NCBI GenBank assembly: GCA_937915455.1
Contig: CALDNN010000225.1
Span: 1,317 to 65,316, forward strand
Source: an uncultured Clostridia bacterium
GTDB lineage: Bacteria; Bacillota; Clostridia; Christensenellales; CAG-138
Length of the DNA: 64,000 nt
Direction: 5' to 3'
How positions within the stretch are numbered: position 1 is the first letter of the stretch; each line of letters opens with the position of its first letter. A program made the translations under genes and the position numbers. The notes beneath the pieces are model-generated. The model was given only the letters and a program-made list of their open reading frames with translations, was not told the DNA's origin and did no database searches. This document shows, piece after piece, positions 3,704 to 17,659 of this stretch.

Positions 3704-4560
3704 AAACAATTGTGATTACTGGCGCAACTTCCGGCATTGGTCTGGAAACTGCACGCATTTTAGCGCGGCAAGGTTGCTTCATTATGGGAATAGGCCACAG
3801 CGTTGAAAACTGCAAACGAGCGGAAGAAAGCATATTATCCGATAATCCAAACGCGAAAATTGCTTATTTCACTGCCGATCTGATGCAGCAGCGGGAAGTC
3901 CTACAAGCTGCGACAACAATCACGAAGTATTTAGATGAAAACTGTAACGGAGAGCTGTATGCGCTAATCAATAACGCCGGTTGCGTGCGCAGTTGGTATA
4001 TGACAACCGAGGAAGGATACGAACAGCAATTCGCGCTCAACTACCTCGCTGGATTTCTCCTAACCTACGAGTTGCTGCCATCCCTGCTCAGGGCAAACGG
4101 ACGGGTCATGATCACCGGCAGCGAATCCCACAAGGGTATTAAGGTGCATTGGGATGATGTGATGCTCCGGCGCGGATATAATCCGCTGACGGCTTATAAG
4201 CAATCCAAGCTGTGCAATATTCTGTTTGCAAAAGGGCTGAATGACCGTTACGCGCAATCCGGCGTCCATGCTTATGTCGTTGATCCGGGCCTTGTAAACA
4301 CTGATATCGGTAATAAGAAAACCGGCGGGCTTGTCAGCTGCGTTTGGGCGCTTCGCAAACGTTACGGCGTATCCCCGTCGGTACCGGCAGAAACCTATGC
4401 GTTTTTGTGCGGGCAGGAAGGAGCGCCGAAAGGACTCTATTATTATCTTTGCAAAGAGAAGACTTATAGCAAACATGTCACAGGCGAAAATGCAGACCGG
4501 CTGTTTGCGCTCAGCGAACGCTTATGCGGAATTCATTATGACAAGGAGAACGTATCATGA
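3700..4560 (+). CDS. SDR family oxidoreductase
   Basis: TGATSGIG NAD(P)-binding motif, NNAG, and YxxxK (YKQSK). Confidence 0.85.
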   Translation: MKTIVITGATSGIGLETARILARQGCFIMGIGHSVENCKRAEESILSDNPNAKIAYFTADLMQQREVLQAATTITKYLDENCNGELYALINNAGCVRSWYMTTEEGYEQQFALNYLAGFLLTYELLPSLLRANGRVMITGSESHKGIKVHWDDVMLRRGYNPLTAYKQSKLCNILFAKGLNDRYAQSGVHAYVVDPGLVNTDIGNKKTGGLVSCVWALRKRYGVSPSVPAETYAFLCGQEGAPKGLYYYLCKEKTYSKHVTGENADRLFALSERLCGIHYDKENVS

Positions 4561-11438: not shown

Positions 11439-12059
11439 ATGAAGGTCATGCTAATAAATGGCAGCCCCCATGAAAAGGGCTGCACCTATACCGCCCTGAT
11501 GGAGGTAGCACAAACGCTGGAGGCGCAGGGAGTCGAAACGGAGCTTTTCCAGCTGGGTAACGAGCCGGTGGCCGGCTGTTTGGCCTGTGGCGCTTGCCGC
11601 GAAACAAAGCGCTGCTTTATGAACGACAAGGTCAACGTGCTGTTGGATAAAATGGCCGGCGTGGACGGCCTGATCGTGGGCTCGCCCGTTTATTACGCGG
11701 CTCCGGCGGGCCAGCTCACCGCTTTTTTGGATCGGGCCTTTTATTGCAAGCCCGGACTCTTTGCGGATAAGCCCGCAGCCGCCGTTGTCTCCTGCCGCCG
11801 GGGCGGCGCGACCGCCGCTTTTGATCAGCTGAATAAGTACTTTACCATCAGCAACATGCCGGTGGTCTCCTCCCAATATTGGAACCAGGTTCACGGCAAC
11901 ACCCCGGCGGAAGTCCGAGAGGATCTCGAGGGCCTGCAAACCATGCGCACCCTGGGCGTGAATATGGCGTGGCTACTCAAATGCATCGAGGCGGGCCGCC
12001 GGGCGGGCCTGCCCGCCCCCGTGCGGGAGAAGGGGATTGCTACCAACTTCATCCGCTGA
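11439..12059 (+). CDS. Flavodoxin-family / NADPH-dependent FMN reductase-like protein (iron-sulfur flavoprotein type)
   Basis: MKVMLINGSPHEKGCTY..., a CxxCxxC cluster, and GSPVYY. Confidence 0.8.
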   Translation: MKVMLINGSPHEKGCTYTALMEVAQTLEAQGVETELFQLGNEPVAGCLACGACRETKRCFMNDKVNVLLDKMAGVDGLIVGSPVYYAAPAGQLTAFLDRAFYCKPGLFADKPAAAVVSCRRGGATAAFDQLNKYFTISNMPVVSSQYWNQVHGNTPAEVREDLEGLQTMRTLGVNMAWLLKCIEAGRRAGLPAPVREKGIATNFIR

Positions 12060-12159
12060 GGCGCGGCGCAGTCCTCCGCTTGTCAATGTGGGCTTCCCTA
12101 GGCGTAGGGAGGCCTCTTTTTGCATATGCTGGATAAAAAGGGGAATGCGAGGTAATACC

Positions 12160-12660
12160 ATGCCCATACAGCATATTATGTCCCACTGGTGCGCCCGGCC
12201 GGATGCCAGGGCGCGGATCGCCGGCAGCCCCAAATACCCCGCCCTGCGGGGGTTTGCCGATTTTTACGCCCTGGATGAAGGGGTGGTGCTGATCGCCTCC
12301 CTCTGGGACCTGCCCTATGATCCCGCGCCTTGCGCACCAAATATCTGCGGCCTGCACATCCACGCGGGCAGGGCCTGCACGGGTACGGAAGCCGATCCCT
12401 TCGCAGATGCCCTGGGCCATTTCAACCCAGGCAACTGCCCGCACCCCGCCCACGCCGGGGATCTGCCGCCCCTCTTTGTTGGCCGTGGCGGTTATGCCTG
12501 GCTGGGGGTCTATACGGAGCGCTTCACCCTGGCGGATATCATCGACCGTACCATCATCGTACACGATCGGCGGGATGATTTCACCAGCCAGCCCGCCGGC
12601 GATTCCGGCACGCGCATCGGCTGCGGCCTGATCGAGCGGTTGGGGCGCGGAATGGGTTGA
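12160..12660 (+). CDS. Cu/Zn superoxide dismutase family protein (no signal peptide)
   Basis: Start trimmed to 12160. The ligand pattern is present: GLHIHAG, GHFNP, HPAHAGDLP, IVHDRRDD. Confidence 0.75.
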   Translation: MPIQHIMSHWCARPDARARIAGSPKYPALRGFADFYALDEGVVLIASLWDLPYDPAPCAPNICGLHIHAGRACTGTEADPFADALGHFNPGNCPHPAHAGDLPPLFVGRGGYAWLGVYTERFTLADIIDRTIIVHDRRDDFTSQPAGDSGTRIGCGLIERLGRGMG

Positions 12661-12679
12661 ATTTATAGGGGGCGCGGGC

Positions 12680-12878
12680 CCCGCCGCTCGCGCATGCCCC
12701 ACGCCTGCCTGGCATAGGCTTTACAAAGCATGCCCGGGTGTATGCGTATGTATTCCTATCATATCATAGAGGACCGGGTTCTGGCCGTGGCGGATTATAT
12801 TGCGGATTATATTATTGATCATCAGGCAACCGAGCGGGCGGCCGCGGGGGCCTTCAAGATTAGCAAGAGCACGGTGCA
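12680..12878 (+). repeat. Copy A (diverged) of the spoIIID promoter/5' CDS module
   Basis: Aligns by eye to 15990-16170, with many substitutions and a 12-nt internal tandem duplication (gcggattatatt x2). The left boundary is approximate. Confidence 0.75.
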
Positions 12879-12894
12879 TATGGAAACAAAATAG
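12748..12894 (+). pseudogene. spoIIID 5' fragment A (48 codons, ends 5 codons past the junction)
   Basis: MYSYHIIEDRVLAVADYIADYIIDHQATERAAAGAFKISKSTVHMETK*. Matches SpoIIID through KISKSTVH, then diverges. Confidence 0.8.
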
Positions 12895-13000
12895 AGCGGC
12901 ATGTATGGCGTGTCTAATAGTATTCCCTTTTAAGCAAGCGTTGTTTGACATATACATAATTCCGTGAAATAATGGGCCTATCCTATCTGGGGAGGCCCGT

Positions 13001-13729
13001 ATGCTTTTTCATACAGATAACGAGCCTGATGCAAGCATCCAAGACAACGATAACATTGACAGCTATAATGCATTCATGGAAAACCTGGACGATGGTGGTA
13101 GCGGCGAGGATAGTGAGGGCGGCGGATTCGGGTTTAGCCGTTTCCTGCTGATAGCGGTTATTGTGCTATTCACGGCTACCTTTGTCGGGTATTGCATCTT
13201 TTACATCCATCATGACGCCAGGTATAGAAAGTTGGATGCCCTGGAACCCAGTACCCGAACCTATGCGGAGTTTGCAGAGGTTTTTAACGAGCTTATGGAG
13301 CCCCAGGGCATTGCCATAGATGTGGAGCCAATATGGCGGCCCCCTGCCATTAACCAAGGGCTGACTGCCATCAGTGTGATGACCCTCCCGGATGGAAGCC
13401 AGGCCCCTTGCGGCGTCGAGCTTTGGGGCCTCTCCGCAAAAAAAGATTATATTTTACGGCTTATTATTTTGCTTCCAAAGGAGCAGGCTCAATATGTGGA
13501 GCCTGTTGTGCGGGGGGGCTTTTCGGTTTTTGCACCGGAGTCTAATGAGCGAAACAGTGAGGACTTCGTGGACATCATTGCTGCGAGTAAATCAGCCTTT
13601 GACCAGTATCCTTATGAGAAAAACTGGTATTTGATTTCGGATGCCAATTTCACTATGCTTTCTGAGGAGCCGGATTATATTACACTTGAGTGGAGCATCC
13701 CTTCCATCCAGTTATGGCCGGGATATTAA
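13001..13729 (+). CDS. Hypothetical membrane-anchored protein (cassette 1)
   Basis: 242 aa with a GGGGAGG RBS. Acidic N-terminus, a single TM (FLLIAVIVLFTATFVGYCIFYI), then an ~170-aa domain. I recognise no family. AT-rich codon usage. Confidence 0.6.
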   Translation: MLFHTDNEPDASIQDNDNIDSYNAFMENLDDGGSGEDSEGGGFGFSRFLLIAVIVLFTATFVGYCIFYIHHDARYRKLDALEPSTRTYAEFAEVFNELMEPQGIAIDVEPIWRPPAINQGLTAISVMTLPDGSQAPCGVELWGLSAKKDYILRLIILLPKEQAQYVEPVVRGGFSVFAPESNERNSEDFVDIIAASKSAFDQYPYEKNWYLISDANFTMLSEEPDYITLEWSIPSIQLWPGY

Positions 13730-13733
13730 ATCT

Positions 13734-14210
13734 CTATCTCCTTCCAGTATTTTTGCCTATAATTATTTTGTCGCGCAGCTTATAGCCGCTTATTGGCGGC
13801 GTGTTTTTCGTACGCGAAGAGGTAGGCAGTGGCGTATAAATGTCTACAACAATGTTGCCGGGATAGTAGTCATACTTTGGCTCCGGATGGTCAAGTAGTT
13901 CCGCCAAATTTTCCATAAAGGGAGCTGACATTAAAGTGTCATCCCCATATTTATATTGCAACCAGAAACTGGCCCATGTCGAAAACTGCGTGAAAAATGA
14001 CAGACCGAATTTTCCCGCGTCCCATAGGAGGTCTCCTAGATCCATCCTGCGGGTTCGGATGATGGAATCAATGGGCAATTGCGTGCCTAGCTCCAGCCTG
14101 GAGATAGCCTCTCCGTTAGCATATACCTCAACATAATAGTTTCCTTTTTCCGTATCAAAATAATAATTTGAAAACGTTATGCCCGGTACGGCATCCTTTA
14201 CATTCTCCAT
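13734..14210 (-). CDS. Hypothetical protein (cassette 1)
   Basis: ORF 13734..14372 trimmed to MENVKDAVPG... at 14210, where the AT-rich composition begins. No clear RBS and no recognisable family. Confidence 0.45.
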   Translation of the reverse strand: MENVKDAVPGITFSNYYFDTEKGNYYVEVYANGEAISRLELGTQLPIDSIIRTRRMDLGDLLWDAGKFGLSFFTQFSTWASFWLQYKYGDDTLMSAPFMENLAELLDHPEPKYDYYPGNIVVDIYTPLPTSSRTKNTPPISGYKLRDKIIIGKNTGRR

Positions 14211-14250
14211 GCGCGGGCGAAAGGGTGCGAATTGCTCCAGCTCTTTTGAC

Positions 14251-14500
14251 CCCGGCGCTCGTGGAAGTTGCTTCCTCGCTGTGGCGATTCCGGTCATCCG
14301 TTGCAAACTTTGCATTCCCCTGCCCGCCCCGCACAAATGCCGACCGGCCCCCGCATACTCTTTACAAAGCATGTTCGGGGGTATTTCGCATGTATTCCTA
14401 TATAGAGGATCGGGTATTGGCCGTGGCGGATTATATCATCGACCACCAGGCAACCGTGCGGGCGGCCGCGGGGGCCTTCAAGATCAGCAAGAGCACGGTG
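14251..14500 (+). repeat. Copy B of the spoIIID promoter/5' CDS module
   Basis: 250 nt versus 15920-16168. Six substitutions and one 1-nt indel, all within the first ~90 nt. The last 160 nt (14341-14500) are identical to 16009-16168. Confidence 0.95.
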
Positions 14501-14593
14501 TATATGGTAGTAGTAAATAGAACGGTATTTGTGGTGTATCACATAGTGACATTGATTGCTTCCAGCCTTAAGTCCAGTATGAAAAAATCTTAA
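14390..14593 (+). pseudogene. spoIIID 5' fragment B fused to cassette-derived codons
   Basis: MYSYIEDRVLAVADYIIDHQATVRAAAGAFKISKSTV, then unrelated YMVVVNRTVFVVYHIVTLIASSLKSSMKKS*. Confidence 0.85.
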
Positions 14594-15044
14594 GAGCAAA
14601 TAAATGAAACAACATCCCTAACAAGCCATAATTACACCATCGCAGACCGCCTCGCCATTCATGGTTAATCTGTTCTGCTGCTGGCTTGTCTTTCATTAAA
14701 TTCAGCATTACAGCTTCTTTGTCGATGCTATTCCTAAGTCTCCAACCCCACCCCATAAGCGCGCCCATAAAAAAATGACGAAACGAAACTAGCGGCTTTG
14801 CTGCCTTTTCTATTTCATTTCGCAGATCTGGGTATCGAACTGTTAAACGCTTGAAAAAAGAATGAAAGAACCATTTCTCTCCCCAAATTGTGCCGATTAC
14901 ATTTGCATAGAAGCCTAATATAACACGATGTTCTGTGTGTTTGATCGAAAGAATGAAGTCGAAGAACAGGCAAAGCAAAAGGAACCCAATTATAAATATG
15001 CCATGGCGGTAAGGTGACCAAATAAGGTGTTCCTTTTGCTTCAA
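14568..15044 (-). CDS. Hypothetical multi-TM membrane protein (cassette 2)
   Basis: 158 aa. TTG start with a GGGAGA RBS. Hydrophobic segments GIFIIGFLLLCLFFDFILSI and YGLLGMLFHLFALKIF. No family recognised. Confidence 0.55.
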   Translation of the reverse strand: MKQKEHLIWSPYRHGIFIIGFLLLCLFFDFILSIKHTEHRVILGFYANVIGTIWGEKWFFHSFFKRLTVRYPDLRNEIEKAAKPLVSFRHFFMGALMGWGWRLRNSIDKEAVMLNLMKDKPAAEQINHEWRGGLRWCNYGLLGMLFHLFALKIFSYWT

Positions 15045-15066
15045 TGTTATATCTCCCTTCGTGCTT

Positions 15067-15763
15067 TTACCTGTTAATTAAAAATTTATATATTTCCTTT
15101 GCAATCTCCCCTTCTATTTCGCCTTGGATTAATGATTCAATTGCACCAAGGAAATCCTTTTTATATTTCTCGGCATGCTTCATGTAGTTAGGGCCAAGCT
15201 CAGTTGATTTACCGTTCAACTCCAAGCCCGTAGTATATAAGAGTTCGTCTCCACGGAAGGCATATGTTACACCGTATCCGCGCTTATTGTCTGGTGATGT
15301 ATAGTATATCACGACATCGCCATTTTCGAGAATAGCAGAAGGATTGAATTCAAAATATTCCTTTAGCTGAAACTCCTTTCCTACCGCAGCAAGCTTTGCG
15401 AATAAATCAGTAAGCGGTGTAGCTCCTGCTCCTAAGCTTACTGCTGATTCAAAAAAATTCTGAAAACCATCCTTATCTTCCCCCAAACCAAAGAGCGGCG
15501 TCCTATTTACGGTTTGTACTATAACTTGCCCGTTTTCTAGAGGGGGTAAGTTATCGTTGTATATATCTAGGCCGGATTCAGACGCACTCCATATACGCCG
15601 AGTGTTTGCGTTATAGCGTTCATTATACCGCTCCATACCTGTTTTTTTGTGCGCCCCAAATGCCGTCCTGCCTTACGCCTAGGGCCGCCTGAATTCGTTT
15701 GACGTCTGCTCTGCTGTTAACCCCATTCGGCGTAGTATAACCGCTTACATAATACTTTCCCAT
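15067..15763 (-). pseudogene. Peptidoglycan-binding-domain protein interrupted by a frameshift in an A7 tract (cassette 2)
   Basis: A 46-aa ORF at 15763..15623, with RBS AAGGAG, reads MGKYYVSGYTTPNGVNSRADVKRIQAALGVRQDGIWGAQKNRYGAV*. It carries a PG_binding_1-like motif. The 189-aa ORF 15636..15067 is in the adjacent frame. Removing one A from the run at 15642-15648 (T7 on +) fuses them into ...DGIWGAQKTGMERYNERY... Confidence 0.6.
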
Positions 15764-15780
15764 TTCTTTGCTCCTTTCTT

Positions 15781-15825
15781 TTGTTAAAAATATAAGAACC
15801 GCAGCTGATTTTCTGCGGTTCTTAT
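15781..15825 (-). terminator. Rho-independent terminator-like hairpin (minus-strand orientation)
   Basis: 13-bp perfect stem: ATAAGAACCGCAG (15792-15804) with CTGCGGTTCTTAT (15813-15825). On the minus strand it is followed by ATTTTTAAC. Confidence 0.6.
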
Positions 15826-15919
15826 CACTTTCCTACTATTTAAGAATACAGTAAGCATCCCGGCAATATAAGGGCGTTATCGCGGCATGTTTCGCGCAAG
15901 CCCGGAGGCATAGCAAGCC

Positions 15920-16168
15920 CCCGGCCTCGTGGAAGTTGCTTCCTCGCTGTGGCGCTTCCGGCAATCCGTTGCAAACTTTGCATTCCCCTGCTCGCCCCGC
16001 GCATATGCCGACCGGCCCCCGCATACTCTTTACAAAGCATGTTCGGGGGTATTTCGCATGTATTCCTATATAGAGGATCGGGTATTGGCCGTGGCGGATT
16101 ATATCATCGACCACCAGGCAACCGTGCGGGCGGCCGCGGGGGCCTTCAAGATCAGCAAGAGCACGGTG
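15920..16168 (+). repeat. Copy C of the spoIIID promoter/5' CDS module (part of the intact gene)
   Basis: See copy B. Confidence 0.95.
16001..16029 (+). promoter_or_regulatory. Putative sigma-E type promoter of spoIIID
   Basis: GCATATG (16001-16007), 14 nt, CATACTCT (16022-16029). Compare the sigma-E consensus as I recall it: ZHATAxx-N14-CATACAHT. spoIIID is sigma-E dependent in B. subtilis. Confidence 0.5.
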
Positions 16169-16309
16169 CACAAGGATATGACCGAGCGCTTGACAGGGCT
16201 GGACGCCTACCGGGCGCGGGCCGTGGGGGAGATTCTCAAGCGCAACAAGGAGGAGCGGCATATTCGGGGCGGCATGGCCACCTATCGCAAGTATAAAGGC
16301 CAGGGGTGA
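16058..16309 (+). CDS. spoIIID: Sporulation stage III transcriptional regulator SpoIIID
   Basis: 83 aa: MYSYIEDRVLAVADYIIDHQATVRAAAGAFKISKSTVHKDMTERL...HIRGGMATYRKYKGQG. Collinear with B. subtilis SpoIIID (KSTVHKDLTERL, RHLRGGEAT). Confidence 0.92.
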   Translation: MYSYIEDRVLAVADYIIDHQATVRAAAGAFKISKSTVHKDMTERLTGLDAYRARAVGEILKRNKEERHIRGGMATYRKYKGQG

Positions 16310-16353
16310 AAAGGGCCGAAGATAGGCCGGAAGTGAAAATATATATTTTGTGG

Positions 16354-16382
16354 TTGACATGATAGGGCAGCCATGGTATCAT
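16354..16382 (+). promoter_or_regulatory. Sigma-A type promoter of the metNIQ leader
   Basis: TTGACA (16354-16359), 17-nt spacer, TATCAT (16377-16382). Confidence 0.6.
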
Positions 16383-16444
16383 ACATTGCAATAGGATTTC
16401 GGCGGGCGCTAAGCGCTTATGAACGGAGGAAAGGAGCAAGCATT

Positions 16445-16540
16445 ATGAAGAATTTCGCCATGGCTATGTGCGGCATGATGATGTGCGGCTCCATGTCCTT
16501 CGGGCATGGAGAGCGTGTGCGTCCATGGGTGCTGGCATAG
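16445..16540 (+). CDS. Met/Cys-rich leader peptide (31 aa) upstream of metNIQ
   Basis: RBS GGAGGAAAGGAG upstream. Sequence MKNFAMAMCGMMMCGSMSFGHGERVRPWVLA*. Six internal Met and two Cys codons lie within codons 6-17. Too short for the ORF track. Confidence 0.55.
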   Translation: MKNFAMAMCGMMMCGSMSFGHGERVRPWVLA

Positions 16541-16558
16541 CCATAGTTGGATATAGCC

Positions 16559-16591
16559 GGGCCGTGAGCGTATACGCTCGCGGCCCTTTTT
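16559..16591 (+). terminator. Intrinsic terminator (candidate attenuator) in the metN leader
   Basis: GGGCCGTGAGCG (16559-16570), TATA loop, CGCTCGCGGCCC (16575-16586), then TTTTT. Lies 45 nt upstream of the metN ATG. Confidence 0.7.
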
Positions 16592-16636
16592 ATGCGGGAT
16601 ATCATACGAGTTCGTTCAAGGAGGTATACCTGGCGC

Positions 16637-17659
16637 ATGAATGCGGCAAGAAGGAACGAGATCATCACCATCCGGGGGCTGAATAAAACCTTCGGCTCGG
16701 GGGATACGGCGGTCACCGCCCTTTCCGGGATCGATCTGACCATTTACGAGGGGGAGATATTTGGCATCATCGGCCTCTCCGGTGCAGGCAAGAGCACGCT
16801 GGTGCGCTGCATGAACTATTTGGAAAAGCCCACCGAGGGCAGCGTGGTCATTGCGGGCCAGCCGCTGGAATCCCTGGCCGAGGGCGAGCTCCTGACGGCC
16901 CGGCGCAACATGGGTATGATCTTTCAGCAGTTCAACCTGCTGATGCAGAAAACGGCCCTGCAAAACATCTGCTTCCCGCTGGAGATCGCGGGCGTATCCA
17001 AGGCGTATGCTATGGAGCGGGCACGGGAGCTGCTCTCCATCGTGGAGCTTACGGATAAGGAAAAGGCCTATCCGGCCCAGCTCAGCGGCGGGCAAAAGCA
17101 GCGGGTTGCCATCGCCAGAGCCCTGGCGGCCAACCCCAAGGTGCTCTTGTGCGACGAGGCCACCAGCGCCTTGGACCCGACCACCACCCGCTCCATCCTC
17201 GACCTTTTGCGGGAGATCAACCAAAAGCTTGGCATCACCATCGTGGTGATCACCCACGAGATGAGCGTGATCGAGGAGATCTGCTCCCGCGTGGCCATCA
17301 TCGACAACAGCCGCATCGCCGAGATCGGCAGCGTAGAGGATATCTTCATGCGGCCCAAGACGGAGATCGCCAAGCGCCTGCTTTACGCCAGCGGCCGCCT
17401 GGGCGAGGAGATGATGGGCGAGAGGTGCCTGCGCATCATCTTCGACGGCACCAAGACGTCTAGCCCCGTGATCTCCAACATGGTATTGGAGTGCGGCGCG
17501 CCCGTGAACATCCTCTTTGCCGACACCAAGACCATCGATGGCAAAATGGTGGGCTACACCCTGGTACAGCTTCCGGAGAACGATACGGTGGTCGAAAAGA
17601 TGAAGCACTACCTCGACCTGCATAGCGTGCATTATCAGGAGGAGGCCTACCATGTTTAA
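16637..17659 (+). CDS. metN: Methionine ABC transporter ATP-binding protein
   Basis: Walker A GLSGAGKST, signature LSGGQKQRV, and a C-terminal NIL domain. Start trimmed to 16637. Confidence 0.9.
   Translation: MNAARRNEIITIRGLNKTFGSGDTAVTALSGIDLTIYEGEIFGIIGLSGAGKSTLVRCMNYLEKPTEGSVVIAGQPLESLAEGELLTARRNMGMIFQQFNLLMQKTALQNICFPLEIAGVSKAYAMERARELLSIVELTDKEKAYPAQLSGGQKQRVAIARALAANPKVLLCDEATSALDPTTTRSILDLLREINQKLGITIVVITHEMSVIEEICSRVAIIDNSRIAEIGSVEDIFMRPKTEIAKRLLYASGRLGEEMMGERCLRIIFDGTKTSSPVISNMVLECGAPVNILFADTKTIDGKMVGYTLVQLPENDTVVEKMKHYLDLHSVHYQEEAYHV

Follow-up and report, generated by a model that had tools for sequence, protein, structure and literature searches.

The 64,000-nucleotide stretch analysed here (the window; contig CALDNN010000225.1 of an uncultured Clostridia bacterium) holds three copies of the start of the sporulation gene spoIIID, of which only the last belongs to an intact gene, and the first two each run into an insert of about 1.6 kb. 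The left ends of these two inserts are related to each other, and they are very probably relic attL sites, each consisting of the P' half-site and the detached tail codons of a large serine recombinase (LSR), left behind by LSR-bearing elements that would have inserted into spoIIID at one and the same CA dinucleotide. The anatomy of the sites, their inverted-repeat symmetry, the reading frame that runs through them and their recurrence at spoIIID in several lineages can be read from the sequences compared below; that a recombinase binds and cuts at the CA is what we infer from them. The target CA belongs to the His38 codon of spoIIID, inside the region of the recognition helix.

The preliminary description of this DNA had reported related left ends of about 45 nt directly after a shared breakpoint, with ATATGG, a 2-nt offset and about three quarters of the next 33 positions alike, and the formal pairwise alignment that it proposed as a check bears this out. 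The two left ends (12877-12921 and 14501-14547, as verified in the sequence) lie at equal offset from one common breakpoint, each preceded by the identical ...GCAAGAGCACGGTG ending of the spoIIID 5' fragment (12863-12876 and 14487-14500). Local alignment of 12877-12940 with 14501-14565 yields exactly the block described, with 25 identities in 33 ungapped positions (12889-12921 and 14515-14547); upstream of it (C/T)ATATGG is common to both left ends and is followed by the 2-nt length difference. The score is reached by none of 5000 shuffled pairs and by two of 5000 random segment pairs drawn from the two insert interiors, and a degenerate pattern of the shared positions, with up to three mismatches allowed, finds no third place in the 64-kb window, where none is expected. 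The interiors and right ends had also been called dissimilar; this holds for the interiors, which have only short, chance-level repeats in common, and fails for the right ends, as both inserts terminate in a 258-nt repeat (14250-14507 and 15918-16175, 95% identical) composed of about 140 nt of upstream sequence and the first 111 nt of spoIIID. The GC content of the inserts is 0.35-0.54 against 0.58-0.67 in the flanks.

The nature of the left end becomes apparent in relatives. A search for SpoIIID with one genome per species returned 28 loci, in most of which the gene is clean and uninterrupted. In the metagenome-assembled genome (MAG) of Ca. Pelethousia sp. CA_100, spoIIID is split over two contigs, L036 with the 5' part and L034 with the 3' part. 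On L036, the promoter and codons 1-37 are followed by CA-TATGGTAGTGACAAAATAGAAAGGTATTTGTGGTGTATTAAATAG, a third version of the left end; on L034, the 3' part of spoIIID is directly preceded by an open reading frame (ORF) ending in ...NETVLVNDNLT, i.e. ...ACCGTTCTAGTTAATGACAACCTTA-CA. This ORF is the last of three tandem genes with the Pfam domains Resolvase, Recombinase and Zn_ribbon_recom, a combination that identifies them as LSR genes, and their sequences match PDB chains of SPbeta integrase, TnpX and TP901-1 integrase. The downstream DNA of L034 is 93% identical to the window. A second Pelethousia contig (L065) has a complete LSR of 511 aa at the same attR, 98% identical to the CA_100 copy, followed by the same genes as in the window, including the ABC-transporter gene, and on human-gut metagenome contigs (L066-L069) another complete LSR of the family runs into a more distant spoIIID 3' part at the same CA. 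As a separate observation, the right end of the CA_100 element (L034 48-6014) holds a tandem array of four LSR ORFs, the first of which is cut at the start of the locus.

Joining the right end on L034 to the left end on L036 rebuilds the CA_100 attP as AAACCGTTCTAGTTAATGACAACCTTA-CA-TATGGTAGTGACAAAATAGAAAGGTATTT or, with the arms written in shorter form, AAACCGTTCTAGTTAATGACAACCTTA-CA-TATGGTAGTGACAAAATAGAAAGGTATTTGTGG. Around the CA, the P arm and the reverse-complemented P' arm match at 19 of 27 positions, which 1 in 100000 shuffles attains; the AAATAGA(A/G)CGG block of the left end mirrors CCGTTCTAGTT in the P arm, and the half-site motif AAATAGAACGG mirrors CCGTTCTAnTT. Unintegrated viral contigs found through the recombinase protein (L040-L045) encode LSRs 65-74% identical to that of L034 and carry, where the gene ends, an intact and contiguous attP that is symmetric about the CA (for example AACGTTCTGATTAGTGACTCCTGTA-CA-TACAGGAGTAACAAAATAGAACGG), so that rebuilt and viral sites alike are short imperfect inverted repeats with a non-palindromic central dinucleotide. 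The empty site (attB) of the window reads GGTG-CA-CAAGG, the left junctions (attL) GGTG-CA-TATGG and the right junctions (attR) ..TTA-CA-(T/C)AAGG. The same CA with the expected halves is found in the attL sites of the window (first and second left end, W1 and W2), L036, L038, L054, L055, L058 and L064 and in the attR sites of L034, L065 and L066, and the empty attB sites at window 16155-16180 and L054 3130-3150 have it as well. As far as comparison of sequences can tell, the junction pattern is that of a B/P' attL and a P/B' attR around a 2-nt crossover, whose recombination would restore the uninterrupted target. Genes with Resolvase, Recombinase and zinc-ribbon domains are present in L034, L065, L066-69 and L040-45, and none is present in the window. 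A tblastn search of INPHARED with the LSR found no close named phage, the best match being 56% to an unannotated faecal contig.

The P' arm appears to be more than a binding half-site. In three distinct viral sequences (such as ..DSCT-YRSNKIERLIWRIK-stop and ..NDHT-YSSYNMERFWWMIQ-stop), the LSR frame continues across the CA for another 14 codons before its stop, and it does so too in the rebuilt CA_100 attP, which translates as ..NDNLT-YGSDKIERYLWCIK-stop. The P arm encodes ...TVL(I/V)xDxxT, the central CA is part of the next codon, and the P' arm encodes 13-15 more residues with the consensus Y-G-x-x-K-I-E-R-Y-h-W-x-h-K and a stop. All eight spoIIID left ends examined translate in the LSR frame, six of them with an intact tail. 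The tail reads YGNKIERHVWRV-stop in W1 (one codon shorter), YGSSKIERYLWCIT-stop in L039 (near-identical to W2), YGSNKIERYVWRIK-stop in L054, YGYGKIERYLWVVK-stop in L055, YGYNKIERYIWVVK-stop in L058 and YGYGKIERYIWVVR-stop in L064; it is damaged in W2, where it is frameshifted, and in L038, where it has decayed to YGNKIEMNL-stop. The stop keeps a constant position and varies in codon (TAA, TAG or TGA), the Arg of the tail is retained by way of CGG, AGG and CGC, two positions remain hydrophobic through many different codons, and conservation among 12 P' arms falls directly past the stop codon; together, these features point to a coding constraint on the P' arm beyond the crossover. The ancestral elements would thus have been subject to two overlapping constraints, recombinase binding from +1 to about +27, including the AAATAGAACGG motif, and coding for the LSR C-terminus up to the stop at +40 to +47, and this overlap would be the reason for the similarity of about 45 nt. 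Since some 40 of these 45 nt are also coding (the last 13-15 codons and the stop), the extent and the end of the similarity are explained, and so is the spacing of about 3 nt between the differences of the two window left ends, because the P' arm would code for the LSR tail. The frame is that of the LSR gene which intact elements carry at their opposite end; the left end read in the spoIIID phase (..K-stop SGMYGVSNS) or in the minus-strand frames contains no ORF.

The recombinase family bears the marks of the same arrangement. More than 6000 database proteins match the LSR at E <= 1e-60, and all 22 family sequences that were read have a common core up to ...TVLIxDxxT followed by unrelated C-termini, which stop at the junction (511 aa), carry the tail (524-525 aa) or read through into host DNA (540-827 aa); the C-terminus of P0070 is the +1 frame of the spoIIID 3' part. 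Because gene prediction continues past attR into the DNA of the host, many LSRs annotated as "long" are artefacts of the junction, and the target of integration can be recognised from them. Family lengths range from 511 to 827 aa (proteins P0002-P0120), and in P0034 the LSR is fused to a DUF362 domain. An AlphaFold2 model of the tail-bearing, 525-aa LSR P0117, built from an 11-sequence alignment, has a mean predicted local distance difference test score of 51, with the tail below 50, and is uninformative on the tail.

Further copies of the left end were sought in a metagenome collection with a pattern of the P' arm only, devoid of spoIIID bases (TATGGN{4,9}AAATAGANNGGNATNTNTGG). This gave 12 matches, of which eight stand directly after the ...SKSTV codons of a spoIIID 5' part and CA. 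In seven of the eight, N-terminal protein identity to the window is 50-62%, which places them in other taxa; in the eighth (L056), which is Pelethousia-like, this identity is 100%. The remaining four adjoin neither spoIIID nor a recombinase and look like chance. Scans of viral sequences with the left-end motif gave chance matches only, inside unrelated genes (L011, L050-52), and the same-species contigs L001-L010 carry the same inserts and add no independent junctions. The preliminary description had proposed scanning for other copies and asking whether they adjoin spoIIID fragments or recombinase genes, and the spoIIID-adjacent matches agree with its suggestion of an att-like or recombinase-binding end, which can now be specified as the probable P' arm of an LSR attP aimed at one CA in spoIIID; arrival of both inserts by the same mechanism, also put forward there, is supported by the att-site anatomy at that dinucleotide. 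Its family of mobile cassettes survives in part: the mobile origin stands, but the 1.6-kb cassettes are not the mobile units, being truncated left-end remains of larger recombinase-bearing elements.

Both window sites are best read as inactive relics, since no LSR gene, recombinase fragment or P arm occurs in the 64 kb, the centre and frame of site 2 are mutated, and spoIIID is intact. In site 2, the centre is TA instead of CA, and the loss of one A from the A-run has altered the spacing of the half-site as well as the frame of the tail; CA and full spacing are preserved in the near-identical L039/L061. In site 1, the spacer from TATGG to AAATAGA is 3 nt shorter than in all others, a feature in common with its L038 homologue. 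Relic 1 is old. Compared with another Pelethousia species, identity is 79.5% in its interior and 72-74% in the adjacent FMN reductase and sodC genes, and a divergence close to that of housekeeping neighbours suggests an old scar that has been inherited vertically. Relic 2 and its CA_100 counterpart are 96% identical and have the same junction with the downstream repeat. On L036, the insert-2 homologue is joined to an internal piece of a recombinase gene (3876-4067; residues 153-216, 91% identical) at a point 62 nt from the position of window attL 2; the 5' fragment and left end are missing at the fusion, and the whole looks like a different rearrangement of the same relic.

Recombination of attP with attB would leave, at the left junction, the spoIIID 5' part, CA and the P' arm with half-site and orphaned LSR tail codons, and at the right junction the LSR gene minus its tail, CA and the spoIIID 3' part. 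The history of the window would comprise two successive insertions, that of relic 1 the older and that of relic 2 the younger. Each would have lost the right part that bore the recombinase, and a functional spoIIID, its promoter and 5' part duplicated, would have been restored downstream. As an LSR recombines without homology beyond the central dinucleotide and without duplicating its target, the duplicates would not stem from the LSR, and a second, non-LSR event is assumed. The most likely route, advanced as a hypothesis, is a tandem duplication of the upstream region, 5' part, attL and left part of the element, or homologous re-insertion of an aberrantly excised circle of the same segment, after which attL x attR recombination would have excised the distal copy. 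The second repeat starts within relic 1, some 80 nt in from its right end, and the left boundary of the repeat has a 7-nt microhomology, CCCCGGC (14243-14249 and 15911-15917), which fits an illegitimate junction. Comparison of the alleles of the duplicated 5' parts favours neither a duplication in place nor an acquisition from another strain.

In L005 (1-1300), from the same species, insert 2 is missing and insert 1 leads directly into an intact spoIIID; the only repeat resembles copy 2 on its left and copy 3 on its right, which could be the product of homologous recombination between the 258-nt repeats or an assembly chimera. In a distant lineage, L054 (1-3300) has the same layout as the window: a 5' fragment and attL come first, then a gene for a Tet(M)/EF-G-like GTPase of 629 aa, a further copy of the P' arm (73 nt, 2517-2589), a duplicate of about 300 nt of the upstream region and finally an intact spoIIID; L059 has the same architecture. 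In L053, an element with this left end has interrupted the restored spoIIID anew, precisely at the CA, and the same cassette stands on both sides of the 5' fragment, with the switch exactly at the CA.

These loci furnish the case for taking the 1.6-kb inserts as mobile units in their own right, recombinase-less cassettes moved by an LSR in trans or by recombination between repeats, with the left end as their own functional terminus: insert 2 is missing from L005, where a hybrid repeat remains as expected for loss between repeats, one cassette flanks the 5' fragment on both sides in L053, and the architecture recurs in L054. We nevertheless consider this improbable. The inserts carry only the P' arm, and the window has no P arm or attR-type site, which leaves an LSR nothing to pair; the mutated centre and shortened spacer at site 2, as well as the vertical inheritance suggested for insert 1, speak against mobile cassettes, and intact elements with the same left end are large and have an LSR at the other end.

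The right ends might instead recall tyrosine-integrase islands, such as SXT at prfC and tRNA islands, which bring along a replacement for the end of their target gene, because the right boundary of each insert is formed by a duplicate of the spoIIID promoter and of the first 111 nt of the gene. On this reading, attP would hold the replacement end, the att identity block would correspond to the 258-nt repeat, and the left end would serve as an arm-type site. This we hold to be highly improbable, as the intact elements have no spoIIID 5' copy and pass at their right end from the LSR gene straight into the spoIIID 3' part, and as the rebuilt attP, a short inverted repeat around a 2-nt centre, has the layout of serine recombinases; no tyrosine integrase was found in the element ends examined, nor any intact element with one and a spoIIID 5' copy at the junction. 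It is just as hard to credit that the left end is conserved mainly for a function in cis once integrated, as a stop of translation or transcription or as a folded DNA or RNA site. At every intact spoIIID attL, the conserved AAATAG does place a TAG in frame with the truncated SpoIIID, 5-6 codons past the junction (..STVHMxxxK-stop), and relic 1, though one codon shorter, retains this frame; however, the motif is also present in viral attP sites that depart from the spoIIID type in the bases next to the junction, it has its mirror image in the P arm, and the in-frame TAG is most simply a by-product of fixed half-site spacing. A structured RNA or integron attC-like site was considered separately and rejected, with no Rfam match, single-strand folding of the left ends within the range of shuffles (z -1.12, +0.79 and +0.10) and no integrase.

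Several observations weigh against the derivation of the left ends from LSR attL sites that is preferred here. The evidence is comparative throughout and recombination is deduced from it, and the promoter and 5' duplicates of 190-258 nt are not explained by an LSR alone; the intact elements show no target duplication, and the window, with one such duplicate per scar, departs from them. The LSR beside attR on L034 lacks its first 45 or so codons, including the AAYCRVSTD motif with the catalytic serine, so that the CA_100 element itself may be defective, and the two ends of this element lie on different contigs of one MAG. The 3-nt shorter spacer of relic 1 and L038 is unusual for a working half-site. 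Finally, the Pelethousia attR sites (L034 6005-6015 and L065 9530-9540) read ACA-TAA-GGA, i.e. CA-TAAGG where CA-CAAGG is expected from the window attB, one base off with a T at +1. This T could be an attB allele or a later or selected mutation; it ends the integrated LSR gene with a stop codon right at the junction and leaves His38 of SpoIIID unchanged (as CAT).

Table 1. Features of the spoIIID locus in the window (positions of the window).
Feature	Position	Strand	Remarks
Cu/Zn superoxide dismutase gene (Sod_Cu)	ends 12660		29 nt before copy 1 of the spoIIID upstream region
spoIIID upstream/promoter region, copy 1 (native position)	12689-12747	+	aligns with 14330-14389 and 15998-16057
spoIIID 5' fragment, copy 1, codons 1-37	12748-12876	+	decayed pseudogene; tblastn 84% to SpoIIID residues 1-37
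Crossover dinucleotide CA, relic attL 1	12877-12878	+	same CA in all attL, attR, attB and viral attP compared
Relic P' arm 1	12879-12917	+	recombinase-frame translation, consensus of 12 P' arms; half-site TATGG...AAATAGAGCGG (to 12899), detached last 12 recombinase codons and stop (YGNKIERHVWRV-stop)
Interior of relic 1	12918-14249		left-end remnant of old element; GC 0.42-0.54
Relic 1 ORF, 242 aa	13001-13729	+	one transmembrane segment
Relic 1 ORF, 157 aa	13734-14207	-	
Repeated upstream region, copy 2	14250-14389	+	about 80 nt of relic 1 right end and about 60 nt of spoIIID promoter region
spoIIID 5' fragment, copy 2, codons 1-37	14390-14500	+	protein 100% identical to intact gene
Relic attL 2 centre, mutated to TA	14501-14502	+	CA in near-identical contig L039/L061
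Relic P' arm 2	14503-14546	+	half-site TATGG...AAATAGAACGG and recombinase tail codons; 1-nt deletion in A-run shifts frame; former stop TAG at 14544-14546
Interior of relic 2	14547-15917		GC 0.35-0.48
Relic 2 ORF, 158 aa	14568-15044	-	membrane
Relic 2 ORF, 189 aa	15067-15636	-	
Relic 2 ORF, 46 aa	15623-15763	-	PG_binding_1 fragment
Repeated upstream region, copy 3	15918-16057	+	promoter of functional gene
Intact spoIIID, 83 aa	16058-16309	+	Pfam SpoIIID 7.3e-33, profile positions 2-80 of 82
Empty attB in intact spoIIID	16169-16170 (CA centre)		GGTG-CA-CAAGG

The first spoIIID fragment differs from copies 2 and 3 by internal tandem duplications of 6 nt (CATATC) and 12 nt (GGATTATATTGC-type), typical of pseudogene decay. 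Homologues of relic 1 stand after a spoIIID 5' fragment and left end in L038 and after sodC in L037. The 189-aa and 46-aa ORFs of relic 2 are cut-down versions of the genes for 233 and 187 aa on L036; apart from the weak PG_binding_1 fragment, Pfam found nothing in the ORFs of either insert, and relic 1 has no Pfam domain. Defence-like cargo occurs in two of the intact elements, namely a DUF4276 and AAA_21/AAA_15 ATPase pair in the spoIIID-inserted element of L036 (8743-10574) and a Schlafen AlbA_2 and HATPase_c_4 protein adjoining primase and VapE-like replication genes in L066 (11-4249). Downstream of spoIIID, ahead of an operon of the MetN-type ABC transporter (16592-17659 onward), a Met/Cys-rich ORF of 31 codons (16445-16540; MKNFAMAMCGMMMCGSMSFGHGE...) is called as a gene in L001, is conserved in L034 and might encode a Met/Cys-sensing leader peptide; Rfam, searched over 12000-17000 at E <= 1, has no riboswitch or other family there.

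SpoIIID is an early mother-cell sporulation regulator, which in B. subtilis helps to switch on the skin recombinase, and elements that split its gene would make the formation of spores depend on their excision. Such spoIIID-inserted elements occur in several Clostridia lineages, human-gut contigs included. For the window itself the practical message is modest, in that the left ends would be fossil attachment sites, the inserts remnants and spoIIID intact; what is new lies in the dual nature of the left end, at once half-site and split-off LSR codons, in spoIIID as a recurrent target and in the unexplained duplication that accompanies the scars. In this LSR family, the attP can be read directly from the 3' end of the gene, and integration would rewrite the C-terminus of the enzyme. 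This matters for annotation and may matter for the control of directionality and for the mining of integrases as genome-engineering tools.

Two further ideas, which together we regard as rather unlikely, would follow from this arrangement. An attP inside the LSR gene could act as a state switch, the free element making an LSR with the 14-residue tail (KIERYxWxxK) and the integrated element a tail-less or host-fused one that differs in stability or in its bias between integration and excision. The locus could also work as a heal-and-keep platform for the accumulation of cargo, where the host regains spoIIID and keeps the attL-proximal genes, for example the Tet(M)-like gene of L054.

Among known systems, composite arrays of the staphylococcal cassette chromosome (SCC) at the 3' end of rlmH, made by the Ccr serine recombinases, resemble the window in their successive insertions at one gene-associated site, with the oldest furthest from the live site and att remnants in between. 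SCC, however, leaves its target gene undisrupted and duplicates no segment, whereas here the promoter and 5' part are duplicated with each scar. In SSV1-type archaeal viruses, it is the gene of a tyrosine integrase that is split by integration. The canonical sites of serine integrases (phiC31, Bxb1, A118, TP901-1 and SPbeta integrase; PMC3783163, PDB 9dxh) share with those described here an attP of about 50 bp, an imperfect inverted repeat with a non-palindromic central dinucleotide, hybrid sites composed as B + P' (attL) and P + B' (attR) and an LSR with Resolvase, Recombinase and zinc-ribbon domains. Unlike in the canonical systems, both arms of attP lie inside the coding sequence of the LSR itself, conservation on the P' side extends to about +47 (the stop codon) instead of about +25, and integration would remove the last 13-15 residues of the LSR or replace them with host-encoded sequence. 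A literature search found no description of an attP inside a serine integrase gene, although such an absence is not proof; C-terminal extensions of some LSRs have been raised as possible modifiers of directionality (PMC12286644). In mycobacteriophage BPs, attP lies inside the repressor gene and integration changes the C-terminus of the repressor, the basis of integration-dependent immunity (PMC4557955). As in BPs, attP is here within a phage gene whose integrated and free forms encode different C-termini, but the gene affected is that of the serine recombinase, and the state switch proposed above would, if true, be the serine-recombinase counterpart of integration-dependent immunity.

The closest known systems are the recombinase-bearing elements that intervene in sporulation genes, such as skin (SpoIVCA) in sigK, SPbeta (SprA) in spsM, vfbin in spoVFB, vrin in spoVR and gin in gerE (PMC4191935, PMC5595907, PMC5499854). 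In the literature found on these elements, spoIIID is not named as an integration target, which is no proof of absence. Like the skin-type elements, those of the relatives (L034 with L036, L065, L066-L069) have an LSR at one end and split a mother-cell sporulation gene at a precise site, and attL x attR recombination would restore spoIIID exactly; the likeness is one of sequence, developmental excision and a directionality factor being features of the known systems. A split spoIIID and an LSR are both found in these relatives and neither in the 64 kb of the window. The elements described here are set apart from the skin type by their target, spoIIID, by a window gene that is intact next to two dead attL scars, and by an LSR reading frame that crosses attP.

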